DNA of 64,000 nucleotides from Bacteroidota bacterium (GTDB taxonomy: Bacteria > Bacteroidota > Bacteroidia > UKL13-3): positions 10,503-74,502 of the forward strand of contig CANLLM010000002.1 of NCBI GenBank assembly GCA_947491825.1, given 5' to 3'. The translations under genes and the position numbers were made by a program. Numbering within the stretch: position 1 is the stretch's first letter; each line of letters begins with the position of its first letter. Shown piece by piece: positions 7,922 through 21,141 of the stretch. Below the pieces are notes generated by a model, which saw only the letters and a program-made list of their open reading frames with translations, made no database searches and was not told the DNA's origin.

Positions 7922-10135
7922 TTAAACCAATGCTTTAACAAGCTTATTATCACCTACAATCCATAAGGTATCATTCAGTTCAAATTTCATACTGGAATCT
8001 GGATTTAATATGCGCTCTCCATTTCGCTCTATACCTACAATCATTCCGTTAATACATTTCCTAAAATTTGATTCTCGTATGGTTTTACCAAGATAAATAA
8101 ACCCCGGATGAACAGTAAGTTGCGTTAAGGTAACATCACCATTGGCTTGCTCAAACACTTGTGCACTGTTGGCCGTTTCGATGGTATTTTTAAAATTTAA
8201 GATTTGTTCATCGGTTCCAATTACCGTAATTCTATCATATGGGTAGAGTTTATCTTCTTTGTTTGGCATCATAATTTTTCTGGCACCACGTTCAATCATG
8301 GCTAAGTTAATCCCAAACTTTTCTCTGAGCATTAGTTCCTCAAGTGGTATTCCAACCAATGTACTATCTATATCTATATCAAAGTTAGCCATGTGGGCGT
8401 CCCAAGGAAGCAAATGGCCTATTGGCGATTTAGCATGCATGGTTTCCCTTAGGTATAAATTATCCATAAACCTCTTCTCTATTCTATTTGAGAAAGCTGT
8501 TAAACGTCTCCTAAAAAGTACCGTTACTATCACTATAACGAATACGCCAATAGTTAAAGCTGTAAACGTTGAAAAAAGCTGGTCGAGTATGAAACCAATA
8601 AAAAAAACACCCAAAGCCACACGGGCTATTTCCATTCCTATTATTGGCCCACGGTTGTATCTGTTTAGCCAAAGCTCGGTATATGATTGGCGATTAATTT
8701 TGCGAACAGAGAGCATATATAAAAAAGGCCCCAGGGCACTTATTGCAATAAATGTTGTGAATACAGTTCCCCATTTACCCCAAATGGTGAAAAAGGGATC
8801 TATAAAATTGGTAACAACTAAGATAATAGCTAAACAAATTACCCCATTAAATACAATAACTTGAAAGAATTCATGTAGTACTTTTTTCCAATCACTTTCG
8901 GCATTAATATGCTGCGCTCCGGTTGAATAATCGTTTATCACTTGAAGCCATTTTGGGGGAAACAACCTGTTTAAAAAACCATACAAGGGTTCGGCAAATC
9001 TGATCATGTATGGAGTAGTAAAAGTTGTAATTACCGATACACCGACAGCAATAGGGTATAGAAAATCGCTGGTTACACCCAACGTAAGTCCAAGTGTGGC
9101 GATGATAAAACTAAACTCCCCAATTTGCGATAAACTTGTGCCTGCTTGTACGCTTTGTTTTAGTGGTACACCACTTATTAGTGCACCACTAGTAACAAAA
9201 AATGTTTTACCCAACATCACAATAAAAGTAAGTAAAATAACAGGGCCTATGTAGGTTATCAATATCCCCGGATTGATAAGCATACCTACCGACACAAAAA
9301 ACACAGCCCCAAACAAATCTTTAACCGATTTAAGAACCTGTACTATGCGCTCTGCTTGAGTTGTTTCGGCTAAAATACTACCCATAATAAAAGCACCTAA
9401 AGCCGCGCTAAAACCAACATTAGCCGCAAACAATACCATGCCTAAACACAATGCAATTGAAATTATTAACAAAGTTTCATCGCTAATGTGCTTACTTAAT
9501 TTTTTAAGCAAACCAGGTAACAAGTAAATGCCCATTAAAAACCACAACACCAAGAAAAACCCTAGCTTAAAAACAGAGGCCAACATTTCTCCCCCTTGAA
9601 ACTTTTGGCTAACAGCTAATGTAGATAAGAGTACCATTAATAAAACTGCAGCTAAATCTTCAATCACTAAAATGCCAATTACTGTTCCAGTAAACTTCTT
9701 TGCTTTTAAGCCCAATTCATCAAAGGCTCTGAATATAATGGTGGTAGATGATATGGCAATTATTCCGCCTAAGAAAATACTATCCATTTTACCCCAACCT
9801 AACAATTGCCCCGCGAAATATCCTGAAATAAGCATGGCTGTTACCTCAAACAAGCCAGTTATTGCTGCAGTACTCCCAACCTTTACTAACTTCTTAAAAC
9901 TAAACTCTAAGCCTAAGCTAAAGAGTAGAAAAATAACACCAATTTCAGCCCATATTTTAATACTATCAACTTCGGTTACCGTTGGGAATAAAGAATAGTT
10001 TGGACTAACCAACAATCCCGCAATGATATATCCCAAAACCACTGGCTGATTTAACTTTTTAAAAAGAAGCGAAACTACACCTGCAGAGAAAAGTATAAGC
10101 GCTAAATCTGTTATAAGATGAGGAACGTGGGCCAT
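7922..10135 (-). CDS. Cation:proton antiporter (CPA2/Kef-type) with C-terminal RCK_C/TrkA_C-like domains
   Basis: About 12 hydrophobic helices of the Na+/H+-exchanger type, followed by a ~200-aa soluble C-terminus with two repeats resembling TrkA_C (…RITVIGTDEQI…, …LWIVGDNKLV…). Confidence 0.85.
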   Translation of the reverse strand: MAHVPHLITDLALILFSAGVVSLLFKKLNQPVVLGYIIAGLLVSPNYSLFPTVTEVDSIKIWAEIGVIFLLFSLGLEFSFKKLVKVGSTAAITGLFEVTAMLISGYFAGQLLGWGKMDSIFLGGIIAISSTTIIFRAFDELGLKAKKFTGTVIGILVIEDLAAVLLMVLLSTLAVSQKFQGGEMLASVFKLGFFLVLWFLMGIYLLPGLLKKLSKHISDETLLIISIALCLGMVLFAANVGFSAALGAFIMGSILAETTQAERIVQVLKSVKDLFGAVFFVSVGMLINPGILITYIGPVILLTFIVMLGKTFFVTSGALISGVPLKQSVQAGTSLSQIGEFSFIIATLGLTLGVTSDFLYPIAVGVSVITTFTTPYMIRFAEPLYGFLNRLFPPKWLQVINDYSTGAQHINAESDWKKVLHEFFQVIVFNGVICLAIILVVTNFIDPFFTIWGKWGTVFTTFIAISALGPFLYMLSVRKINRQSYTELWLNRYNRGPIIGMEIARVALGVFFIGFILDQLFSTFTALTIGVFVIVIVTVLFRRRLTAFSNRIEKRFMDNLYLRETMHAKSPIGHLLPWDAHMANFDIDIDSTLVGIPLEELMLREKFGINLAMIERGARKIMMPNKEDKLYPYDRITVIGTDEQILNFKNTIETANSAQVFEQANGDVTLTQLTVHPGFIYLGKTIRESNFRKCINGMIVGIERNGERILNPDSSMKFELNDTLWIVGDNKLVKALV

Positions 10136-10254
10136 AGTAATGAAGTTAAAATTAGGCTAAATATAGCAATTATCAGGAGATAGTAAAAGTTAATACATTT
10201 TAAACATGAGGGCGATACCGTACAATTCACTATTTATTATATCATGTAAAAGTG

Positions 10255-10262
10255 TAGTTTTG
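10255..10262 (+). promoter_or_regulatory. Possible Bacteroidota-type -7 promoter element (TAnnTTTG)
   Basis: 'TAGTTTTG' matches the TAnnTTTG -7 consensus of sigma-A promoters in Bacteroidota and lies 22 nt upstream of the PPIase ATG. No convincing -33 TTTG element was seen. Confidence 0.3.
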
Positions 10263-10283
10263 CACTCCTTAATGTAAAAATTT

Positions 10284-10721
10284 ATGAATAAAACAGCTGA
10301 AATACACACCGCTAAAGGTGTAATGAAAATTGAATTTTTCGAAAACGATGCCCCTAATACGGTTGCCAACTTTACAAAGTTAGCCCAAAGTGGTTTTTAC
10401 AATGGTTTGACATTTCACCGCGTATTACCAGATTTTGTAATACAAGGCGGATGCCCAAATGGTATTGGTAATGGTGGACCTGGGTACAAAATTGATTGTG
10501 AATTAACAGGAGAAAACCAACACCACGATAAAGGTGTTTTGTCTATGGCACATGCAGGACGCAACACAGGAGGCTCGCAGTTTTTCATTTGCCACAGCCG
10601 CACAAACACTGCTCACCTTGATAGAAATCATACTTGCTTTGGTAAAGTAATTGAAGGGTTAGAAGTAATCGATGCCATTCGTCAAGGTGATGTGATGGAG
10701 AAAGTAATTATCAACGAATAA
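10284..10721 (+). CDS. Peptidyl-prolyl cis-trans isomerase, cyclophilin type
   Basis: Cyclophilin signatures '[13 protein letters not shown]' and 'GGSQFFI'. Size is 145 aa. Confidence 0.93.
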
Positions 10722-10760
10722 GTAATTGCTGCTTACCCAGCGCACATACCAACATTTTAT

Positions 10761-12032
10761 ATGTTACAATTAACGGTTTTAAGAGAAAACACCCAAGAGG
10801 TTAAGGAACGTTTAAACAAACGCAACCCTGCATTTTCATCTATAGTTGATGAGGTACTTGTGCTTGATGAAAAAACACGTTCCGCCAAACAAGAAATGGA
10901 AAATCAACAAGCCGAGGCAAATAAAATTGCCAAACAAGTTGGTGAGCTGATGAAAAATGGTAAACGTGAAGAAGCCGAAGAGGTAAAGAAACAATCATCA
11001 AGCTTAAAAGAACAAGCAAAACATCTAGAGGAAATAGTAAAACAACTTGAGGAAGATTTGTTTGCCAAATTAGTTACAATTCCAAACACACCAAATGAAA
11101 TAGTACCTGAGGGTAAAACACCTGAAGAAAACTTAACCATCTTTCAAAATGGAGAAATACCAACACTTGCTGAAGGTGCGATGCCGCATTGGGACTTAAT
11201 TACAAAATACAATTTAATTGATTTTGAATTAGGCACCAAAATTACAGGAGCTGGATTTCCGGTTTACCGTGGTAAAGGTGCCCGCATGCAACGTGGCTTG
11301 GTAAATTTCTTTTTAGACGAGGCCTTAAAAGCCGGTTATGAAGAAATTGTACCCCCATTTCTGGTAAATGCTGAAAGTGGTTTTGGAACTGGACAGTTAC
11401 CCGATAAAGAAGGTCAAATGTATCATGCACAGGTTGATGATTTATATTTGATACCAACAGCAGAAGTGCCAGTTACCAATATGTACCGTGATGTAATTTT
11501 AAAAGAAGAAGAGCTGCCAATTAAAAATGTGGCCTACTCTCCTTGTTTTAGAAGAGAAGCTGGAAGTTGGGGTGCACACGTTCGTGGATTAAACCGATTA
11601 CATCAATTTGAAAAAGTAGAAATTGTACAAATTGCAACACCTGAGCAATCGTATGCTATTTTAGATGAAATGGTAAAGCACGTACAAGGTTTGTTAGAGA
11701 AACTAGAATTGCCTTACCGTATACTTCGTTTATGTGGTGGCGATATGGGCTTTACATCAGCACTTACCTACGATTTTGAAACATACAGCACGGCACAACA
11801 ACGTTGGTTAGAAGTAAGTTCCACATCAAACTTTGAAAGTTTTCAGGCCAACCGTTTAAAGTGCCGTTACAAAAACAAAGATGGTAAAAACCAACTGGTA
11901 CACACTTTGAATGGAAGTGCTTTGGCATTGCCACGTATTTTGGCCACCATTTTAGAAAACAACCAAACACCTGAAGGCATTAAAATTCCAAAAGCATTGG
12001 TACCTTATGTTGGGTTTGAAATGATTAACTAA
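10761..12032 (+). CDS. serS: Seryl-tRNA synthetase
   Basis: N-terminal coiled-coil arm and class II motifs, including 'CFRREAGS' and 'TLNGSALALPR'. Size is 423 aa. Confidence 0.97.
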   Translation: MLQLTVLRENTQEVKERLNKRNPAFSSIVDEVLVLDEKTRSAKQEMENQQAEANKIAKQVGELMKNGKREEAEEVKKQSSSLKEQAKHLEEIVKQLEEDLFAKLVTIPNTPNEIVPEGKTPEENLTIFQNGEIPTLAEGAMPHWDLITKYNLIDFELGTKITGAGFPVYRGKGARMQRGLVNFFLDEALKAGYEEIVPPFLVNAESGFGTGQLPDKEGQMYHAQVDDLYLIPTAEVPVTNMYRDVILKEEELPIKNVAYSPCFRREAGSWGAHVRGLNRLHQFEKVEIVQIATPEQSYAILDEMVKHVQGLLEKLELPYRILRLCGGDMGFTSALTYDFETYSTAQQRWLEVSSTSNFESFQANRLKCRYKNKDGKNQLVHTLNGSALALPRILATILENNQTPEGIKIPKALVPYVGFEMIN

Positions 12033-12051
12033 ACATCACCATTGTAAATTT

Positions 12052-12078
12052 AAAAAAGCTACACAGTGTGGCTTTTTT
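12052..12078 (+). terminator. Rho-independent terminator after serS
   Basis: Stem agctac/gtggct (one G-U pair) with a short loop, preceded by an A-run and followed by TTTTTT (12073-12078). Confidence 0.6.
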
Positions 12079-12157
12079 AATATTGATTTTATGGCGTTTT
12101 TATAAACACAATAACAAGAAGTTAATGGTGTACACTTAACTAAGTATACTTGCATAA

Positions 12158-12730
12158 ATGCTTAATGATAGAGAGTTAATTAAAGCTATTTTAGGTGGTA
12201 ACGAAGCCGCTTTTAAAACGCTTTATACCATATATAAAGATATGGTATATAACACCGCTTTAAGTATACTGCAACAACAAATAGAAGCAGAAGATATTAG
12301 CCAAGATGTATTTATAGAAATACATAAATCAATCGGGAAATTTAGACACAATTCGTCCTTAAAAACCTGGATATACAGAATAACCATAACCAAATGTTAC
12401 GATTATTTAAAGAGACAAAAAACTAAGAAGAGGTTTGCCCAACTTACCTCCCTGTTTAATAGTGAAAACAAGTTGGTTTATGATAAACCACATTTCGAAC
12501 ACCCAGGTGTTACGCTTGAAAACAAAGAACATGCAAGTGTATTGTTTTTGGCAATTAGCAAGCTCCCTATTAAACAACAAACTGCATTTACTTTAAGTAA
12601 AATTGAACATTTATCTTATAAAGAAATAGCAGAAATAATGAACACCACAACCTCAAGTGTAGAATCGCTAATTTTTAGGGCAACTAGAAATTTAAGAGTC
12701 ACGTTATCTGAATATTATAAAAACGAATAA
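12158..12730 (+). CDS. ECF-type RNA polymerase sigma-70 family factor
   Basis: Region 2 'DISQDVFIEIHKSIGKFRHNSSLKTWIYRITITKCYDYLKR' and region 4 HTH 'SYKEIAEIMNTTTSSVESLIFRATRNLR'. Size is 190 aa. Confidence 0.9.
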   Translation: MLNDRELIKAILGGNEAAFKTLYTIYKDMVYNTALSILQQQIEAEDISQDVFIEIHKSIGKFRHNSSLKTWIYRITITKCYDYLKRQKTKKRFAQLTSLFNSENKLVYDKPHFEHPGVTLENKEHASVLFLAISKLPIKQQTAFTLSKIEHLSYKEIAEIMNTTTSSVESLIFRATRNLRVTLSEYYKNE

Positions 12731-12774
12731 ACAGTTAACGCAAGTATTGATGCTGTTAATCTTCTAAATAATTG

Positions 12775-13089
12775 ATGGGAACTTTAAATAATAAGTTAAT
12801 TGACGAAACTGTAAATAGCATACACAGTATTCAACGAGCGGAAATGTCTCCCTTTTTGTTCAATAAGATTATTAATCGAATTAAAGCGGGAATACCAGAG
12901 CCAATTTATTATACGGGAGCATGGTTTTTGCGCATCGCTGTTACGGGAGTAGTTATTATTTCGCTAAATGCAATAACCATTTGGTCTGTAACAAAACAAC
13001 CCCAAAAACAGGTAAATGAACAAATGGAATTGCATAAGATAGCACAAGAATATTTTGGCAACGATAATGTAACAAGTTACTTCTATTAA
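12775..13089 (+). CDS. Putative anti-sigma factor (single-pass membrane protein)
   Basis: Small protein directly downstream of the ECF sigma gene with one TM helix (WFLRIAVTGVVIISLNAITIW). The call is by position and architecture only. The ATG at 12775 follows the TTG at 12772. Confidence 0.5.
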   Translation: MGTLNNKLIDETVNSIHSIQRAEMSPFLFNKIINRIKAGIPEPIYYTGAWFLRIAVTGVVIISLNAITIWSVTKQPQKQVNEQMELHKIAQEYFGNDNVTSYFY

Positions 13090-13098
13090 TTCATAATC

Positions 13099-13638
13099 AT
13101 GAGAATAAACAAAACTAAACTCTTGCTTACTTTGGTTATTTTATTATCTATACTAAATGTAAGCACTATTGCTAGCATTTGGAGATATATCGACTTCAGT
13201 ACGTTATCTATAATAACAACACCTGCCCCAATGGGTGGGCCGAAAGATTTTATCATTAGTAAACTTGATTTAAACGAAGAACAACAGAAAGTTTTTGAAG
13301 AACTTCGTCAGGAGCATTTTCAAGAAATGAAAAACCTACAAGAGAATATACGTGTAGAAAAAGATGCCATGTACGACTTGTTAAAAAGTGACCAACCAGA
13401 TACAACTGCTTCATACCAACACATAGCTCGCATAATGAAAAATGAAGAGAAACTTGAGCACATCACATTTAATCATTTTAGGAAAGTGAGGGCTATCTGT
13501 AATGCCGAGCAACAACAACATTTTGATGTAATCATAGATGAGGTAATGCGCATGCTAATGAGACCACCGCGTCCGCTAGCACCAGGTAAAATGCACCAAA
13601 ATAACCACGCCAAAGATCAACATTACCACTTACCATAA
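13099..13638 (+). CDS. Spy/CpxP/ZraP-like periplasmic protein (heavy-metal-sensor-like)
   Basis: N-terminal signal-anchor (LLLTLVILLSILNVSTIASIW), a helical E/Q/K-rich body with the LTxxQ-like motif 'LNEEQQKVFEELRQEH', and a His-rich tail 'HQNNHAKDQHYHLP'. Confidence 0.6.
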   Translation: MRINKTKLLLTLVILLSILNVSTIASIWRYIDFSTLSIITTPAPMGGPKDFIISKLDLNEEQQKVFEELRQEHFQEMKNLQENIRVEKDAMYDLLKSDQPDTTASYQHIARIMKNEEKLEHITFNHFRKVRAICNAEQQQHFDVIIDEVMRMLMRPPRPLAPGKMHQNNHAKDQHYHLP

Positions 13639-13653
13639 AACCACTTAACTGAT

Positions 13654-13902
13654 ATGAAGTTATTAAAGAATATCGCCCTAAGCGATACAGGATTTGTATT
13701 TAATCCCGGTACTGGAGATTCTTTTTCGGTAAACCCAATAGGATTAAGTATCCTAAAGGATTTACAAGAAGGCAAATCTGAAGAAGCTATTAGAAACAGG
13801 GTAATTGAAGATTACCAAACTGATAAAGAAACCATAGAAAAAGATTTATATGATTTTTTGAAAATGATTGAGCAATTTAACCTTACTGATTACCATGAGT
13901 AA
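13654..13902 (+). CDS. PqqD-family (RRE-fold) small protein, 82 aa, C-terminal ...DYHE
   Basis: The pattern 'GFVFNPGTGDSFSVNPIGLSILKDLQEGKSEEAIRNRVIEDYQTDKETIEKDLYDFLKMIEQFNL' follows the PqqD consensus. That consensus is a beta-strand, 'tg..f.lN..g..iw..l.g.s..ei', then 'dv..fl..l...gl'. Confidence 0.8.
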   Translation: MKLLKNIALSDTGFVFNPGTGDSFSVNPIGLSILKDLQEGKSEEAIRNRVIEDYQTDKETIEKDLYDFLKMIEQFNLTDYHE

Positions 13903-14941
13903 GCGTAAGATTACTGTTGCTGTATCAGGTTTAAATAACATTGACAGTCCTGGACCCGGCATACCCGTTATTCGTGCACTCAAAGACAGTGAACTTTTTG
14001 AAATTCGAATTATCGGTTTATCGTACGACACAATGGAGCCGGGAATTTATATGCACGATTTGGTAGATAAAACTTACCAAATACCGTTGCCTTCAGCTGG
14101 TCAACAAAGTTTACTCATGCGTTTATCATACATACATCAGCAAGAGAAAATTGATGTGCTAATCCCCAACTTTGATGCAGAATTATTTAACTTCATAAAA
14201 CTGCAAGACACCTTAAAAAAAATGGGTATTCATACCTTTTTGCCCACACTAGAGCAATTTGAAGAAAGGCAGAAATGGGCATTAAATACTTTTGGAGAAA
14301 AGTATGGAATTAAGGTGCCAAGAAGTAAACAAATTAATAGTACAGCCGAAATACATGCATTAACACATGAGTTTGGATACCCATTTGTAGTTAAAGGCAA
14401 ATTTTATGATGCAACAGTTGCTTATTCACCGGATCAAGCCATGGCGGCATTTAACAAGATTAGTGGCAAATGGGGCTTACCTATTATAATACAACAATAT
14501 ACGCCCGGAACAGAAGTTAACCTTACAGGAATTGGCGATGGAAAAGGCAATTTAATAGGTGCAGTACCTATGCGTAAAACATATATTACCGATAAAGGCA
14601 AAGCATGGGCTGGTATAGCATTAGAGGACGAAACGCTCATGAATATTGCTCGCAACATGGTAAAAGGAAACAATTGGAGAGGGGGATTTGAACTGGAAAT
14701 GATAAAAACGGACAAGCGAGAATATTATTTGATTGAGATTAATCCGAGGTTTCCTGCATGGGTATATTTAGCAGTAGGTACAGGGCAGAATCATCCCGAA
14801 GCACTGGTTAGGTTGGCACTTGGCGAAGAAGTCAAGCCTTATGAAAGCTATGAGTCAGGTAAAATGTTTATTCGTTACTCATACGATAAAATTGTTGAAC
14901 TCAAAGAATTTGAAACTATTTCTACCCTAGGAGAATTATAA
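13895..14941 (+). CDS. ATP-grasp family ligase
   Basis: ATP-grasp motifs 'YPFVVKGKF' (Lys strand), 'IIIQQYTPGTEVN' (hinge) and 'YLIEINPRFPAW' (Mg/ATP E-x-N). The ATG at 13895 (MSKRKITVAVSG...) overlaps the PqqD-like stop by 8 nt (ATGAGTAA). The ORF track starts at 13868. Confidence 0.85.
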   Translation: MSKRKITVAVSGLNNIDSPGPGIPVIRALKDSELFEIRIIGLSYDTMEPGIYMHDLVDKTYQIPLPSAGQQSLLMRLSYIHQQEKIDVLIPNFDAELFNFIKLQDTLKKMGIHTFLPTLEQFEERQKWALNTFGEKYGIKVPRSKQINSTAEIHALTHEFGYPFVVKGKFYDATVAYSPDQAMAAFNKISGKWGLPIIIQQYTPGTEVNLTGIGDGKGNLIGAVPMRKTYITDKGKAWAGIALEDETLMNIARNMVKGNNWRGGFELEMIKTDKREYYLIEINPRFPAWVYLAVGTGQNHPEALVRLALGEEVKPYESYESGKMFIRYSYDKIVELKEFETISTLGEL

Positions 14942-14960
14942 CCTATAATTAAAATTACAG

Positions 14961-16337
14961 ATGAAAAAGCAAATATACGAGCGCCCCTTAATACACAGAA
15001 TCAATACTGGTATGATGAATAAATTCGGTACCAAAACAGAATATGCGCCCGTTAGTCATATTGATGGTTTGGCAGTAAAAGATTTGATAAAGGAATACGG
15101 ATCTCCCCTATTTGTGCTGAGTGAGGATACCATTAGAAACACATATAGAGAAGCTGTTCGTGCGTTTAAAACAAGATATCCCAAAATACAATTTGCATGG
15201 AGTTATAAAACCAATTACATCAATGCTGTGTGTAATATATTCCATCAAGAAGGATCATGGGCAGAAGTTGTTTCGGGATTTGAATACCAAAAAGCGATTA
15301 ATAACGGAGTACCAGGACCAAAAATTATTTTTAATGGCCCTGATAAAAGTGATGATGATTTAAGACGTGCGATTACCAACAACTCCCCAATCCATATAGA
15401 CCATCTTGACGAGCTATATCGTTTAACAGAATTAGCCGAAGAAATGAACAAACGGCCGAATGTTGCTATTCGCGTTAATATGGATACGGGTATTTATCCA
15501 ATGTGGGATCGTTTTGGATTTAACTACGAAAACGGACAAGCATGGGATGCTATCAATAAAATAATTTTAGGTAATCGCCTTGAGTTGATTGGTGTTCATT
15601 GTCACATCGGAACTTTCATGTTATCACCTCAAGCGTATGCTACAGCAGCTTATAAATTATCTGATTTAGCATTGGGGATAAAAAAGAAATTTGGCAAAAC
15701 AATTCACTATATCGATATGGGTGGAGGATTCGCATCTAAAAATACATTGAAAGGATCTTTCCTTCCAGGTGCCGACACCACTCCTACCATTGATCAATTT
15801 GCGGAATCTATCACCACTGCACTATTAAATGCCGGATTCACCGAAAAAGACCTACCACTTCTGGTTTTAGAAACAGGCAGGGCACTAATTGATGAAGCTG
15901 GTTATTTATTGGGAAGCGTAATTGCAAACAAACGTTTAAGTGATGGAAGAAGAGCCACCATTATGGATTTTGGCGTAAATATATTGTTTACCTCTTTTTG
16001 GTACGACCATAAAATTAGTCCTGCACAAGAGTTTAGTTCTTACACAGAAGATACGGTAATGTATGGCCCATTGTGTATGAATATTGATGTAGTTAGAAGC
16101 CATATTACCTTACCCCCATTAAAAAAAGAAGACCATGTAGTTGTTCATACAGTAGGGGCCTACAACATGACGCAATGGATGCAGTTTATTGCCATGCGAC
16201 CTGCTGTAGTATTAATTGGCACAGATGGCAAATCGCACTTAATTCGGAATAAAGAAACCATAGAAAATATTGAATCGAGTGAAGTAATGCCAGATTTTTT
16301 AAAAAAGCATGCACTTGCATCTGGTATTTTAAAATAA
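14961..16337 (+). CDS. Fold-type III PLP-dependent decarboxylase (Orn/DAP/Arg decarboxylase family)
   Basis: PLP-Lys context 'FAWSYKTNY', 'GVHCHIGT' (HxHxG[ST]), phosphate-binding 'IDMGGGFA', 'LETGRALI' (EPGR-like), 'YGPLCMNIDV' and C-terminal 'VGAYNMT'. All catalytic signatures appear intact. Confidence 0.85.
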   Translation: MKKQIYERPLIHRINTGMMNKFGTKTEYAPVSHIDGLAVKDLIKEYGSPLFVLSEDTIRNTYREAVRAFKTRYPKIQFAWSYKTNYINAVCNIFHQEGSWAEVVSGFEYQKAINNGVPGPKIIFNGPDKSDDDLRRAITNNSPIHIDHLDELYRLTELAEEMNKRPNVAIRVNMDTGIYPMWDRFGFNYENGQAWDAINKIILGNRLELIGVHCHIGTFMLSPQAYATAAYKLSDLALGIKKKFGKTIHYIDMGGGFASKNTLKGSFLPGADTTPTIDQFAESITTALLNAGFTEKDLPLLVLETGRALIDEAGYLLGSVIANKRLSDGRRATIMDFGVNILFTSFWYDHKISPAQEFSSYTEDTVMYGPLCMNIDVVRSHITLPPLKKEDHVVVHTVGAYNMTQWMQFIAMRPAVVLIGTDGKSHLIRNKETIENIESSEVMPDFLKKHALASGILK

Positions 16338-16343
16338 CAACCA

Positions 16344-18533
16344 TTGAAAAGCCAAATTCAATTATTCGGAAAAGGATTTATAAATAGTTATTCGCAATTA
16401 TTTTTCGCTGATAATAAAACATTTGCGTGGTTGCTATTGCTATCTTCCTTTGTTAATCCCGTTATGGGAATTAGCGGGGCGTTAGCAACCATTTCTAGTT
16501 TGGTTTTTTCATATTGGATCGGATTAAATAGGACACACATTGGCCACGGTGTATATAGTTATAATGCATTAATGATTGGCCTCGTTTTAGGGGCGCAATA
16601 CCAAATAACACCATCATATCTACTCCTGTTGTTGGTTGCTGCAATTCTTAGTGTAATTATTGCTGTTTGGTTCAATACAATTTTGGCCAAATACCAATTA
16701 CCTTCATTAAGTTTATCTTTTTTATTCAGTCTTTGGTTAATAACTATTGGGCTGCGCACATATAACAACATCACACTTAACGAAAACGGCATCTACAGGT
16801 ACAACGATTGGTATTTGATAGGTGGTGATCATTTAGTAAACTTCATGCACAAGATGGAGGAAATTCAAATTCCTGAAGTGATTGATGTATATTTAAAATC
16901 ACTCTCCGCAGTATTCTTTCAATACAACATCATTGCAGGCTTTCTTATTTTAGTTGGATTAATCATTTGGTCGAGAATAGCATTTATACTTTCCATCATT
17001 GGATTTAGTATGGGATACCTATTTTATTTTGGCTTGTCGGGAGAATTCTCTCAACTTTACTACAGTTACATCGGATTTAACTTCATCATGACAGCAATAG
17101 CATTAGGAGGTTTTTATCTTATACCTTCACGTGCCTCATTTATTTTAGCTATCATATCAATGCCCATTATTGGCATATTGATAAGTGGTTTAAACGGGAT
17201 TCTAATTATATATCAACTTCCATTGTATTCGTTACCATTTGTTATAACAGTCTTAATTGTACTGATGTTGTTAAGTCAAAGAACTTACCTGCACAGATTA
17301 ATTCCTGTAACCTTTCAGCATTTTTCGCCCGAAAAAAACAAGTACAACTATTCCAATAATGCCATACGATTCAAAAACAGTAAATGGGTTAATATTCAAT
17401 TACCATTTTTCGGAGAGTGGTTTGTTTCCCAGGGATATCATGGCAAAATAACACATAAAGAAAATTGGAGTGAGGCATTAGATTTTGTAGTAGTTGATGA
17501 AACTAAGCACACTTTTAAATCACTTGGTACATCTGTAACAGACTTTTACTGCTATAATTTACCACTACTAGCGCCTGCAGATGGGTATGTAGTAGAAATT
17601 GCTGATGGCATAGAAGATAACAAGATTGGAGATGTTGATTTGATAGAAAACTGGGGAAATACAATTGTAATTAAACATGCTGATGGCATATATAGTAAAC
17701 TATCACACCTAAAAGCGAATTCTATACTGGTAAACATAAATGATTATGTTAGGGCAGGACAAATATTGGCAAGCTGCGGAAGCTCCGGCAGATCGCCAGA
17801 ACCACATTTGCATTTCCAAATACAAAAAACTCCTTTTATTGGATCTGCAACTATAAGTTATCAGATCAACCATTTTATAAGTAGGGTAAACGAAAAATAT
17901 CAATTTCACGAAAACGAAATACCACAAGAAGGGGCTCAAATTCATCAACCAATAAAAACTCCGTTATTAAGTAGCGCTTTTCATTTTACACTGGGACAAA
18001 TAATCACATTCGAAACAGATATTAATTCAGGAAATAAACATAGCATAACTTGGGAATGCATGGTTGATTCATGGAATAAAACCTATTTGTATTGCCGTCA
18101 AACTAAAGCTTATGCCTACTTTATAAATAATGGTACAACATTTTATTTCACAAGTTACCATGGTTCAAAAAAATCCTTATTATTTGATTTCTATTTAGCG
18201 GCATACAAAATCCTCTTGGGCTATTATCCTGATCTAACAATAAAAGATAGCATTGATATTGGGTTATTTAAACACCCTATCTCTTCGTGGTTTCAAGACA
18301 TTATTGCTCCATTTTATCTATTTAAAAAGGTAAGTTATCAAGTAAATTTTAAACAAATAGACGATATGATTGCACCTACATACATAGTAATAGAAAGTAA
18401 AATTGAAGCATACAACTTTAACTCAAAAACCAAAGAGCGTAACTATAAATTAGTAATACAAGATGGAAAACTCATGCAAATTGTTATTAACCCAAACCAT
18501 AAATCAGCACTAACAATAACATGCACAAACTAA
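16344..18533 (+). CDS. Fusion protein: urea-transporter (UT) family channel domain + M23 (LytM-type) metallopeptidase domain + ~190-aa unassigned C-terminal domain
   Basis: The N-terminal ~320 aa is polytopic and carries both UT half-signatures ('SYNALMIGLVLG' and 'GFNFIMTAIALGGFY'). The M23 domain shows 'ITHKENWSEALDF', 'NWGNTIVIKHADGIYSKLSHL' and the HxH motif 'EPHLHFQIQ'. The TTG start at 16344 is the only in-frame start after the upstream stop. Confidence 0.75.
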   Translation: MKSQIQLFGKGFINSYSQLFFADNKTFAWLLLLSSFVNPVMGISGALATISSLVFSYWIGLNRTHIGHGVYSYNALMIGLVLGAQYQITPSYLLLLLVAAILSVIIAVWFNTILAKYQLPSLSLSFLFSLWLITIGLRTYNNITLNENGIYRYNDWYLIGGDHLVNFMHKMEEIQIPEVIDVYLKSLSAVFFQYNIIAGFLILVGLIIWSRIAFILSIIGFSMGYLFYFGLSGEFSQLYYSYIGFNFIMTAIALGGFYLIPSRASFILAIISMPIIGILISGLNGILIIYQLPLYSLPFVITVLIVLMLLSQRTYLHRLIPVTFQHFSPEKNKYNYSNNAIRFKNSKWVNIQLPFFGEWFVSQGYHGKITHKENWSEALDFVVVDETKHTFKSLGTSVTDFYCYNLPLLAPADGYVVEIADGIEDNKIGDVDLIENWGNTIVIKHADGIYSKLSHLKANSILVNINDYVRAGQILASCGSSGRSPEPHLHFQIQKTPFIGSATISYQINHFISRVNEKYQFHENEIPQEGAQIHQPIKTPLLSSAFHFTLGQIITFETDINSGNKHSITWECMVDSWNKTYLYCRQTKAYAYFINNGTTFYFTSYHGSKKSLLFDFYLAAYKILLGYYPDLTIKDSIDIGLFKHPISSWFQDIIAPFYLFKKVSYQVNFKQIDDMIAPTYIVIESKIEAYNFNSKTKERNYKLVIQDGKLMQIVINPNHKSALTITCTN

Positions 18534-19681
18534 CTACACTTTTTATACTATGTTTTGCGTTTGCTGGTGCCAACTCACAAGTGTATTATATATCAGGTGC
18601 TGATAGCCTTCTTAAGGAGGAATACAATAAAGGTAGTTGGAAAAATGTAATGCAGATTACAGATAGTATTCACAAAATAGGCATGGGCTACCATGAGGCA
18701 TTTGAAATGGCTGCAGAAGCCGCATACATTTTAAACAAACCATTTAAACAACATACCTACTTACAACATGCATTACAAGATTTTCCAACGGATAGTGCAG
18801 TTTTATTGAAATTAGCTTATTGCTTTTGGACAACAAAACAATATAGTCATGGTAATAAAATACAATATAAATTATTAAAGAAAAGATTGCTAAATGAACA
18901 GAATAAGGTTAAAATCAATGTTGTAAACTTTGATATTGGAAGTAAAATTAGCAGCAATACCAGCCTGTATAATAATTTAAACTTTGTTTCTGTTGGTACA
19001 ACTTTCCCCATAAAGTTTATACTTACTTACCATGGGATAACTTATCTTAGACAAAAAAGCTTCTATGGAGATATAGCGCAAATACAATATTACCTGAATA
19101 GCTCAATAGCACTAAGAAAAGGATGGAAGATTAGTGGAATTCTGCATTTAGCAGAATATAATCTAACCAACTATCCTGCAGATTTAATAGGTAATCAAAT
19201 TTTATCAGGCGATCAATACATATTGGGTTTAGGAACAAGTAAACTTTACAAAAATTGTTTGTTTGGAGTCGATGTCATAAAATCTAACTTAAACTATAAA
19301 GATCAACTTCAAATAGTCTCGGGAATAATATACTACCCATTAAACAATACAAAACTTATACTTAATATAGATGCTAACTACCTTACCGAAAAATCACACA
19401 CCATTGCTTCTTATAGACTTACTTACTCACCAATTAAATCATTAAATGTAAGTTTAAGTTATTTACAAGCCAATACACGTAACTTTACCGAGCAGAACGC
19501 ATTTTTGGTTCATAATTCTTTTGATATTACCCGTAATAAATATGCTTTATCCGTAACACAACATATTTCAAAAAACATACGTATAATCGGAATATTTCAA
19601 TTAGAAAATAAAATAGAAACAATAAGTAACACCAATTATCAATACACAATACTAGGTTTAGGAGTAAAAAATATATTTTAA
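18521..19681 (+). CDS. Secreted protein: N-terminal helical/TPR-like region + C-terminal beta-barrel-like region (putative outer-membrane protein)
   Basis: Signal peptide MHKLTTLFILCFAFAGANSQ. A helical segment covers roughly residues 20-115. Alternating hydrophobic beta-strand pattern follows, ending '...GLGVKNIF' with an aromatic terminus. The start overlaps the upstream gene by 13 nt. Confidence 0.55.
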   Translation: MHKLTTLFILCFAFAGANSQVYYISGADSLLKEEYNKGSWKNVMQITDSIHKIGMGYHEAFEMAAEAAYILNKPFKQHTYLQHALQDFPTDSAVLLKLAYCFWTTKQYSHGNKIQYKLLKKRLLNEQNKVKINVVNFDIGSKISSNTSLYNNLNFVSVGTTFPIKFILTYHGITYLRQKSFYGDIAQIQYYLNSSIALRKGWKISGILHLAEYNLTNYPADLIGNQILSGDQYILGLGTSKLYKNCLFGVDVIKSNLNYKDQLQIVSGIIYYPLNNTKLILNIDANYLTEKSHTIASYRLTYSPIKSLNVSLSYLQANTRNFTEQNAFLVHNSFDITRNKYALSVTQHISKNIRIIGIFQLENKIETISNTNYQYTILGLGVKNIF

Positions 19682-19690
19682 GAAACACAT

Positions 19691-20296
19691 ATGAAAATTT
19701 TAACTGTAATATTATTAACAATAGGCATAAGTCCACTATTTGCTCAAGAAACAAGCCTCCAAACCGCATTCGAGAAAAGTTATCCATCAGAGAAAAGTGC
19801 GAATTATAACGAAGCTTCCCAAGCATTAATGCAGGTATACAGTGAGAAGTCATATGAATTAAATTTACGTTTGGGGTATTTAAAATACATGGCGGGTGCA
19901 TATAATGATGCCATTATTTTTTATAAAAAAGCAATACAAATAATGCCTTATGCCATTGAACCGCGATTAGGTTATGTATACCCAGCAGCGGCACTAAATA
20001 AATGGGATGATGTGATTATACAATATCAAGCAATACTAAAAATTGACCCGAATAATAGCAGTGTTAATTATAAGTTAGGTATTATATACTACAACCGTAA
20101 AAAATATACACAAGCATATAATTTGTTCGAAAAGGTAGTGAATCTTTACCCTTTTGATTATGATGGATTGTTGATGTATGCATGGAATAATTATCGCATG
20201 GGCAAATTACCTCAAGCTAAATTATTATTTAAAAAGGTGTTGTTAATTTCCCCTAATGATAAATCAGCATTAGAAGGATTAGCCCTCATAAAATAA
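19691..20296 (+). CDS. Secreted TPR-repeat protein
   Basis: Signal peptide MKILTVILLTIGISPLFAQ. Several 34-aa TPR-like repeats are visible (…AYNDAIIFYKKAIQIMPYAIEP…, …YTQAYNLFEKVVNLYPFDYDG…, …LPQAKLLFKKVLLISPNDKSA…). Confidence 0.75.
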   Translation: MKILTVILLTIGISPLFAQETSLQTAFEKSYPSEKSANYNEASQALMQVYSEKSYELNLRLGYLKYMAGAYNDAIIFYKKAIQIMPYAIEPRLGYVYPAAALNKWDDVIIQYQAILKIDPNNSSVNYKLGIIYYNRKKYTQAYNLFEKVVNLYPFDYDGLLMYAWNNYRMGKLPQAKLLFKKVLLISPNDKSALEGLALIK

Positions 20297-20526
20297 AAAC
20301 GCAATAAATAATTGAATATATGTTGTCCTTTGTATTCAATATGTTATCACCAATATAACACCTATTGTTTTTGCAGCTATCAAATCGTTGACATCAATAT
20401 TCTACTAACTGTAATTATCAAATAACCAATAAATACAGCCGTTTTACAAATTTAGTTTTTACAACCTTTTAGCTAAAAATTACGTTCATTTTTAACGCTT
20501 TGCAAGCAATGTGTTACCTTAGCGTT

Positions 20527-21141
20527 ATGTTAGTTGAATTACATCCTCAAAATCCAAACCTGCGTGACCTAAAAAAGGTGATGGACATATTACAAAAAGA
20601 TGGGATAATTATTTTACCTACAGATACCATTTATGCCATGGCTTGCAGATTAGACAGTAAAAAGGCAATTGAACGCATGGCACGTGTATCAGGTAAGAAA
20701 TCCGAAAAGATTAACTTCTCCCTTATTTGCTCTGATTTGTCAAACATATCTGATTATACGGCTGTTATTGATAGGGCTGTGTTTCGCTTGCTCAAAAATA
20801 ATTTACCTGGACCATTTACATTTATTTTAAAAGTAAATAATAATGTAACCAAATACTTTAGCGGCAATAAAAAAACAATTGGTATACGGGTACCTGATAA
20901 TGCAATTGCACAAACTATAATAAAAGAATTAGGTACTCCATTAGTAGTAACAACGATTCATCATGATGATGAAATTTTAGAATACATGACTAACCCTGAA
21001 GAAATTCATGAAAAGTTTGAACATATAGTTGATTGTGTTATTGGTGGAGGTGCTGGAGGTAATATCCCTTCAACAATTATTGATTGCAGCGAAAATGAAG
21101 TTAATATAATACGTCAGGGTAAAGGTCAATTAAATTCGTAA
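20527..21141 (+). CDS. L-threonylcarbamoyladenylate synthase family protein (YrdC/YciO/Sua5 domain)
   Basis: YrdC-domain motifs 'ILPTDTIYAMACRL', 'LPGPFTFIL' and 'IGIRVPDN'. The ATG at 20527 (MLVELHPQNP...) is preferred over the upstream start at 20500. Confidence 0.85.
   Translation: MLVELHPQNPNLRDLKKVMDILQKDGIIILPTDTIYAMACRLDSKKAIERMARVSGKKSEKINFSLICSDLSNISDYTAVIDRAVFRLLKNNLPGPFTFILKVNNNVTKYFSGNKKTIGIRVPDNAIAQTIIKELGTPLVVTTIHHDDEILEYMTNPEEIHEKFEHIVDCVIGGGAGGNIPSTIIDCSENEVNIIRQGKGQLNS

Follow-up and report, generated by a model that had tools for sequence, protein, structure and literature searches.

A urea-transporter-fold channel fused to an M23 peptidase domain, predicted to be cytoplasmic, in a conserved gene cassette of Bacteroidota

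The window analyzed here is a 64,000-nucleotide stretch of DNA from a Bacteroidota bacterium (GenBank assembly GCA_947491825.1, contig CANLLM010000002.1, positions 10,503 to 74,502 of the forward strand), and coordinates are given along it unless another locus is named. It contains a gene whose product joins a channel of the urea transporter (UT) fold to an M23 zinc-peptidase domain and to a C-terminal domain that we call X; we refer to this protein as UT-M23-X. The open reading frame (ORF) is intact and starts 6 bp past the stop of the preceding gene. We put forward, as a possibility a little short of even, that UT-M23-X is the inner-membrane part of a six-gene cassette, in which the M23 domain would act in the cytoplasm as a cleave-and-release amidase under an export pore. 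The gene and its parts are as follows.

16344..18533, plus strand: UT-M23-X fusion gene, 729 aa, TTG start (Pfam, homologues, AlphaFold2 (AF2) model, Foldseek).
16380..17276, plus strand: UT-fold channel domain, aa 13-311, with helices Pa,1a-5a, a central loop at aa 138-177, and helices Pb,1b-5b (Pfam, alignments, Foldseek).
17277..17417, plus strand: conserved basic linker, aa 312-358, with an invariant R313 and the motif SPEKN.Y (alignments).
17418..17843, plus strand: M23 zinc-peptidase domain, aa ~359-500, with invariant H371, D380, H455, H488, and H490 (Pfam, alignment, Foldseek).
17844..18530, plus strand: C-terminal beta-rich domain X, aa 501-729 (model; weak LolA/YmcC/RseB-like fold match).

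The Pfam profile UT (PF03253) covers aa 13-309 (E 1.5e-52, 179 bits vs. a cutoff of 25, profile positions 5-290 of 292), and Peptidase_M23 (PF01551) covers aa 405-495 (E 2.1e-15, 57.1 bits vs. a cutoff of 28.7). The AF2 model of the full protein, built with 75 homologues, has a predicted local distance difference test score (pLDDT) of 88.9 and a predicted TM-score (pTM) of 0.81. When this model was compared by Foldseek, the solved urea transporters were all matched, with a TM-score on the target of 0.83-0.86, and the M23/LytM proteins DipM, EnpA, EnvC, ShyA, and lysostaphin were matched with a probability of 1.00. An earlier note on this DNA, made from the sequence, had read a UT part, an M23 part, and an unassigned domain of ~190 aa into this single ORF. 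That architecture is confirmed, including the UT-like character of the N-terminal part, which both the profile and the fold bear out, but the last part measures ~230 aa. The motifs it had quoted all lie in the 729-aa product where they were said to be: SYNALMIGLVLG at aa 72-83 and GFNFIMTAIALGGFY at aa 244-258 in the UT part, and ITHKENWSEALDF at aa 369-381 and HLHFQIQ at aa 488-494 in the M23 part. All domains except X belong to known families.

UT-M23-X is a widespread, uncharacterized fusion, present in Bacteroidota and a few other lineages. Each of the best 120 homologues carries both domains, with lengths of ~725-735 aa and identities of 44-91%, and they derive from many independent metagenome-assembled genomes of Bacteroidota, Chitinophagales, Flavobacteriales, and Sphingobacteriales. 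A HMMER scan with only the M23 and C-terminal part retrieved 599 clusters (50% identity level) at E<1e-30, nearly all of them matched at positions ~320-730 of ~730-aa proteins. A metagenome scan added 80 further loci at 38-49% identity to the window protein, and the single-protein search of genome contigs returned four near-identical loci only. Stand-alone M23-X proteins with a signal peptide were sought in these sets and none was found, the shorter hits being truncated fusion calls that start inside the UT helices. Database entries carry names such as “urea transporter,” “peptidase M23,” and “urea transporter/murein DD-endopeptidase MepM/NlpD.” Literature searches on combinations of the cassette domains and on two related topics retrieved no paper on the UT-M23-X architecture or on the cassette.

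No part of the protein is better conserved than the M23 domain. Across 55 more distant members, identity to the window sequence is 63% for M23, 47% for UT, 46% for the linker, and 37% for X. The residues H371, D380, H455, H488, and H490 do not vary in the 75 homologues, which are the set behind all residue counts below, and the spacing [TS]Hx8D occurs in 219 of 220 long family members. The first motif is Hx8D and not HxxxD: the canonical M23 histidine at D-4 is absent, and the invariant H371 stands at D-9. A longer His...Asp spacing is known in the M23A enzyme LasA. Non-catalytic LytM domains typically lose catalytic or ligand residues. The earlier note had considered a degenerate LytM domain with zinc ligands lost in orthologues; the ligand set is conserved, and the pattern of conservation fits an enzyme and not such a scaffold. 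We thus predict a catalytically competent but atypical zinc amidase, with H371 as a putative zinc ligand. UT-M23-X resembles lysostaphin, LytM, MepM, ShyA, DipM, and EnvC in its fold, its HxH motif, its catalytic histidine, and its aspartate ligand, all invariant, but departs from them in the Hx8D motif, in its predicted cytoplasmic location, in being fused to a channel and lacking a signal peptide, and in its linkage to biosynthetic enzymes instead of cell-wall genes. An amidase or release role for the domain is one that we infer by analogy.

To assess the channel, pore residues were set against the urea recognition motif of human UT-A2, hUT-A2 (PMC11589576), with the following correspondences.

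hUT-A2 Q67 (Pa): Q18 in 73/75
hUT-A2 F70 (Pa): F21 in 75/75
hUT-A2 Y123 (3a): Y/F73 in 71/75
hUT-A2 T176 (5a): S123 in 69/75
hUT-A2 Q231 (Pb): A189 in 74/75
hUT-A2 F287 (3b): F245 in 75/75
hUT-A2 T338 (5b): S296 in 73/75
hUT-A2 F341 (5b): F299 in 73/75

In urea transporters, urea is relayed along Q(Pb)-T(5b)-T(5a)-Q(Pa); the glutamine on the outer side captures it, and the substitution Q231A impairs urea permeation in hUT-A2 (PMC11589576). UT-M23-X has A189-S296-S123-Q18 in these places, so that the relay motif is broken while the aromatic walls and the glutamine on the cytoplasmic side are retained. In comparison with the UT/SLC14 proteins (dvUT 3K3F, UT-B, UT-A2), it keeps the full Pa,1a-5a/Pb,1b-5b fold, both signature motifs, the aromatic walls, Q18, and the PE.N..Y motif of the C-tail, but differs in the outer Gln-to-Ala exchange, in having serine for both threonines, and in carrying a 410-aa enzyme module predicted to be cytoplasmic. 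The urea-transporter equivalog model Yut (TIGR03441, NCBIfam) scores 108.1 bits, under its cutoff of 274.6, and no urease or urea metabolism genes were found in the genomic context. These comparisons describe a pore of UT fold that is narrow, polar, asymmetric, and probably working. Its label as a urea transporter is doubtful because the outer relay glutamine is alanine in nearly all homologues, and a role as a canonical or dedicated urea channel is probably not the right one.

The same residues bear on an alternative that we consider unlikely, in which the UT part is the working part, serving urea, ammonia, or another small amide, and M23 and X form a cytoplasmic metabolite sensor or gate. 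The UT fold is complete, the aromatic wall of F21, Y/F73, F245, and F299 is conserved, the linker is highly conserved, and, judging by the pTM, M23-X may be docked against the channel in the predicted structure, all of which would suit a regulated channel. The loss of the outer glutamine, at the position where Q231A is harmful in hUT-A2, and the low score of the equivalog model speak against it, as does the M23 domain itself, the best conserved segment with all five catalytic or ligand residues invariant.

Our proposal, in which the M23 domain would be an enzyme, draws on the genes around UT-M23-X. The other five members of the cassette are listed below.

13654..13902, plus strand: PqqD-family protein, 82 aa (PF05402, 2e-10, 41.2 bits vs. 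a cutoff of 23.4); overlaps the ATP-grasp start by 8 nt.
13895..14941, plus strand: ATP-grasp ligase, 348 aa, of the carbamoyl-phosphate synthetase (CPS)-like/PRK12767 type (ATPgrasp_Ter / PRK12767).
14961..16337, plus strand: pyridoxal phosphate (PLP) decarboxylase of the diaminopimelate (DAP)-decarboxylase fold, 458 aa, closest to FigC/FslC.
18521..19681, plus strand: outer-membrane protein, 386 aa, in which a signal peptide and an N-terminal TPR region are followed by a predicted beta-barrel at the C-terminus; the start of this gene and the stop of UT-M23-X overlap.
19691..20296, plus strand: periplasmic TPR protein, 201 aa, with a signal peptide.

The six genes lie on the same strand and are spaced by a few bp or overlap. 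The genes for PqqD, ATP-grasp, and decarboxylase are found directly upstream of UT-M23-X, on the same strand, in 53 of the 59 non-redundant loci with at least 3.2 kb of upstream sequence; the link to an ATP-grasp and a decarboxylase drawn in the earlier note is thus real. That note had left out the PqqD-family protein, the outer-membrane protein, and the periplasmic TPR protein or proteins. PqqD profile matches recur in homologous loci, and the PqqD-like protein of the window falls under the cutoffs of the NCBIfam models for PqqD-family chaperones. Downstream, a TPR gene is present in 46 of 50 loci with at least 2.3 kb of sequence, and ORF clustering places the outer-membrane partner after UT-M23-X in 72 loci. 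For this partner, the TPR region is confirmed, and a barrel is suggested by the sequence pattern and by a weak BBP2 (beta-barrel porin-2) match at one homologous locus, L009. There (10118-11301), the partner is divided between a 204-aa TPR protein and a second ORF of 184 aa that gives the BBP2 match, which supports reading the 386-aa protein of the window as two modules, TPR and barrel.

Conservation is unevenly distributed along the cassette. In the 53 loci, mean identity to the window is 43% for UT-M23-X, 69% for the decarboxylase, 64% for ATP-grasp, and 49% for PqqD. Where UT-M23-X ranges over 38-53%, the decarboxylase ranges over 61-86% and ATP-grasp over 53-81%, and the outer-membrane protein, where detectable in more distant loci, reaches 24-30%. 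By these identities, the rate of evolution differs widely between the two halves of the cassette, and the strong constraint on the enzymes points to a metabolite of importance to Bacteroidota.

The interpretation in the earlier note turns on the side of the membrane on which M23-X lies. Cryo-EM of hUT-A2 established the helix order Pa,1a-5a, long extracellular loop, Pb,1b-5b (PMC11589576). The UT domain of the window protein aligns end to end with dvUT (24-310/340) and with hUT-A2 (57-377/397), its second half cross-aligns with the first half of UT-B, and aa 312-337, which contain the invariant SPE.N.Y, line up with the C-tail YPEANRIYY, cytoplasmic in mammalian UTs. When the published helix order (PMC11589576) was applied to the 75 homologues for a positive-inside tally, the mean number of lysines plus arginines was 9.64 on the cytoplasmic side vs. 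4.28 outside, with an excess inside in every sequence (minimum +1, mean +5.4). The five short outside loops average 0, 0.27, 0, 0, and 0 such residues, and most of those outside fall in the 40-aa central loop, itself net acidic. Next to the last transmembrane helix, there are 0 lysines or arginines before it and 2.2 after it, including the invariant R313. In the 220 long family members, no transmembrane-like segment follows the last UT helix; the last transmembrane window ends 46-85 aa ahead of the TH motif, and the window protein has no hydrophobic segment past aa ~318. An extra helix that would flip M23 outward, the alternative offered in the earlier note, is thereby excluded.

A natural fusion adds a further argument. 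Locus L091 (3358-7275, from a lineage with 73% GC) holds the same cassette, but its UT-M23-X ORF lacks a stop. The frame stays open across a ~55-aa linker rich in Pro and Ala, then across a classic, intact-looking signal peptide, RR..PR-AGLLALALTLLPAALA|AQ, and on into the TPR and barrel of the outer-membrane protein. Ten of 12 cluster members, drawn from several assemblies, share the resulting length of 1305 aa. The basic n-region of a Sec signal must be cytoplasmic, so that such a fusion would be harmless only with M23-X in the cytoplasm. We give this evidence moderate weight, as it comes from a single lineage in which an internal GTG start may serve too. Taken with UT homology, charge bias, the flank of the last helix, and the lack of an additional helix, it makes a cytoplasmic M23-X very probable as a prediction, which favors the first of the two topologies that the earlier note had left open.

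Domain X (~230 aa) has no Pfam match even at E<=5 and no sequence match in the PDB with a 36-sequence profile. Modeled alone, it reaches a pLDDT of 89.4 and is beta-rich with three short helices. In the PDB, Foldseek found half-barrels of the LolA, YmcC-like, RseB/MucB, and nitrobindin type, all as weak matches; LolA 8cgm ranked first (E 5e-3, TM-score 0.30-0.35, root-mean-square deviation >10 A). We treat X as a new domain, which may be a half-barrel that binds a ligand. LolA-like folds occur also in cytoplasmic enzymes, such as VioE. In M23 and X together, three cysteines are conserved, C403 (75/75), C478 (71/75), and C584 (75/75), and a partner-like cysteine stands at aa 727 in 52/75 or at aa 721 in 13/75 (65/75 together); these residues could be metal ligands, catalytic residues, or disulfides.

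Topology and domain X together weigh on a second alternative, quite unlikely in our judgment, which inverts the UT part (N-out/C-out) and places M23 and the LolA-like domain in the periplasm, in a trans-envelope complex with the TPR and the TPR-and-barrel proteins. M23 would then work on peptidoglycan or serve as a LytM-type scaffold, and the LolA-like domain would shuttle hydrophobic or lipidated cargo to a Slam-like barrel. The tight coupling to secreted partners would be natural in such a complex, since the outer-membrane gene overlaps the UT-M23-X stop and the partner persists across its 72 loci, even those without the enzymes. The weak LolA/RseB/MucB matches, the cysteines that could pair, and the fact that all the solved M23 relatives found are cell-wall enzymes or activators would fit it as well. 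It must, however, accommodate a charge bias in the opposite sense in 75/75 sequences, with outside short loops almost free of lysine and arginine, the basic flank with R313 right after the last helix, and homologous UTs with cytoplasmic termini. Furthermore, a periplasmic M23-X would mislocalize the outer-membrane protein in the L091 fusion, and the M23 domain, at 63% identity, is conserved about as well as the cytoplasmic enzymes, whereas the secreted partners evolve fast.

By profile, the nearest relatives of the upstream-encoded ATP-grasp protein are the second ATP-grasp in carbamoyl-phosphate synthetase and the stand-alone 2pn1; a search for its homologues returned orthologues at >=69% identity only, and no other genomic contexts. 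The closest PDB relative of the decarboxylase is FigC/FslC (7kh2, 1.2e-54), followed by archaeal LysA (2.7e-41) and BtrK (5e-27, identified by its PDB molecule name). It scores under the NCBIfam cutoffs of both FslC (NF041039, 227.7 vs. 500 bits) and lysA (TIGR01048, 212 vs. 297.9), and by these scores is a distinct subfamily of the DAP-decarboxylase fold.

Known systems offer partial parallels. BtrJ and BtrK act on the carrier BtrI in making the butirosin side chain, BtrJ being an ATP-grasp enzyme with a small carrier protein. FigA/FigC turn N-citrylornithine into N-citrylputrescine, and SbnH of staphyloferrin B is named alongside them (PMC7857480). FigA/FigC, SbnE/SbnH, and BtrJ/BtrK resemble the cassette in pairing a carboxylate-amine ligase with an enzyme of the DAP-decarboxylase fold, the substrate there being an amino acid tethered by its side chain. 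The cassette differs in having a PqqD-family partner instead of an acyl carrier protein, a CPS-like ATP-grasp instead of an NRPS-independent siderophore (NIS) synthetase, and no tailoring or acceptor genes; its membrane and export parts differ from those of all three. In glutathionylspermidine synthetase/amidase (GspSA), a CHAP domain, of a family best known from cell-wall hydrolases, cuts in the cytoplasm an amide made by an ATP-grasp domain. GspSA differs in using CHAP and not M23, in fusing the two activities to each other and not to a channel, and in lacking an export apparatus. On the export side, the outer-membrane partner, with its signal peptide, N-terminal TPR, predicted C-terminal barrel, and extra periplasmic TPR protein or proteins, recalls PgaA, BcsC, AlgK/AlgE, PelB, and Slam. 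No sequence homology to them was detected, and the barrel region is small (~250 aa). As for synthase-dependent secretion, neither a glycosyltransferase nor a recognizable polymerase was found in the cassette.

Drawing on these analogies, the cassette probably makes and exports a small amide compound. The PqqD-family protein would present a peptide or carrier, and its presence suggests a peptide or small protein as the tether. The ATP-grasp ligase would form an amide bond of isopeptide type to an amino acid, and the DAP-decarboxylase-like enzyme would strip the free alpha-carboxylate (“ligate-then-decarboxylate”). The UT part (311 aa) would provide a complete pore, presumably trimeric, whose C-tail leads on the cytoplasmic face into M23 and X, with domain X probably binding a ligand. 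Tethered to this channel, M23 would hydrolyze an amide where the pore opens to the cytoplasm and there free a product that is small and uncharged. The product would then pass the inner membrane and exit through the TPR and beta-barrel protein, helped by the periplasmic TPR protein or proteins. On this reading, UT-M23-X would not be a cell-wall hydrolase. We infer the substrate, the product, the direction of transport, and the coupling of hydrolysis to permeation by analogy with the systems above.

Several observations weigh against this proposal. Six of the 59 loci (L010, L035, L045, L046, L061, L075) have UT-M23-X and its outer-membrane or TPR partners without adjacent PqqD, ATP-grasp, and decarboxylase genes, and in the two examined, L035 and L075, a TPR-containing protein still overlaps the UT-M23-X stop. 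Within 900 bp upstream of PqqD in ~55 loci, no conserved small ORF for a precursor peptide was found, only antisense shadows, in a search confined to the PqqD neighborhood that a gene elsewhere would escape. The 40-aa central loop, here the sole part exposed to the periplasm, is the least conserved segment (34% identity), and we therefore see no obvious docking site for the TPR proteins. The fold hints for domain X point, weakly, to proteins of LolA/RseB type that are mostly periplasmic, and the conserved cysteines might pair as disulfides. The marked narrowness of the UT pore restricts the range of possible cargo. Finally, to our knowledge, the characterized M23 domains all act outside the cytoplasm.

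A third alternative, decidedly unlikely, turns the enzymes to a metallophore: ATP-grasp and the FigC-like enzyme would build an acyl-diamine resembling rhizoferrin or staphyloferrin, and UT-M23-X, the outer-membrane protein, and the TPR proteins would export it, or take it up and release its metal by hydrolysis. The closest solved relative of the decarboxylase is indeed the rhizoferrin enzyme FigC (PMC7857480), and some loci have metal-related neighbors (Metal_resist/Spy-like in the window, L005, L008, and others; YHYH and SCO1 in L005; SCO1 and DUF420 near L010). Such genes turn up, however, at a minority of loci only (6-8 of ~85). In both size and charge, polycarboxylate metallophores greatly exceed what a UT pore could take, the cassette has neither a TonB-dependent receptor nor an NIS synthetase, and the FslC model falls well under its cutoff.

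By analogy with synthase-dependent secretion, one may also imagine a machine for secreting a side-chain-free polyamide (nylon-like) chain, which strikes us as most improbable. If Glu or Asp were repeatedly ligated through the side chain and then alpha-decarboxylated, poly-GABA or poly-beta-alanine would grow on a primer held by PqqD; the UT pore, slot-shaped and amide-recognizing, would thread the chain over the inner membrane, and an M23 of Gly-Gly type at the pore mouth would cut or free it. The TPR proteins and the TPR and barrel porin would carry it over the outer membrane, like PgaA, BcsC, or AlgK/AlgE. Finally, a frameshift or assembly error joining two separate genes in this assembly only, a doubt raised in the earlier note, is refuted by the same ~730-aa architecture in hundreds of independent assemblies at 38-91% identity, by a conserved linker with invariant residues, and by shorter hits that begin where truncated fusion calls would.

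If the cytoplasmic placement holds, UT-M23-X would be the first case of an M23 peptidase demonstrated to act intracellularly, tethered to a channel to “cleave at the gate,” an arrangement with no characterized precedent. Likewise, the UT fold, known only as a urea or amide channel, would have been put to use for a different solute, and this in an environmental lineage of great abundance. The whole cassette may prove to be a new pathway, and the annotation is probably wrong for thousands of entries labeled “urea transporter” or “murein DD-endopeptidase MepM/NlpD.”

Upstream of the cassette, three further genes on the plus strand, a variable module for regulation or stress that is present in only some loci, occupy one stretch of the window.

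12158..13638, plus strand: ECF sigma factor, a 105-aa protein with a single transmembrane segment, and a Spy/CpxP/Metal_resist-like protein.

The sigma factor, of the extracytoplasmic function (ECF) type, has 190 aa and the Spy/CpxP/Metal_resist-like protein 179 aa, with a 15-bp gap to PqqD; the 105-aa protein has no Pfam match and is a possible candidate for an anti-sigma factor. This triad precedes the cassette in the window and in L005, L008, and L011. Elsewhere, an AraC-type helix-turn-helix regulator mostly takes its place (27 loci); across loci, an ECF sigma factor is found upstream in 8, and a Spy/Metal_resist-like protein in 6.

Other neighbors vary between loci. At L005 (4544-6516), genes for YHYH (PF14240), SCO1/SenC, and a 189-aa protein are inserted between ATP-grasp and decarboxylase, and SCO1/SenC and DUF420 lie just downstream of the L010 locus; the SCO1/SenC genes may reflect a link to copper or a coincidence. 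A membrane protein with a Gate domain (nucleoside recognition) and a glycosyltransferase-like gene lie upstream at L075.

In the window, a scan for promoters and terminators gave results at chance level. A seryl-tRNA synthetase gene and, following it, a terminator-like hairpin at 12050-12080 precede the triad (10761-12080, plus strand). This hairpin is the only convincing one of intrinsic-terminator type on the plus strand in the scanned stretch 12000-20700, which suggests that the genes from 12158 to 20296 form one or two transcription units.

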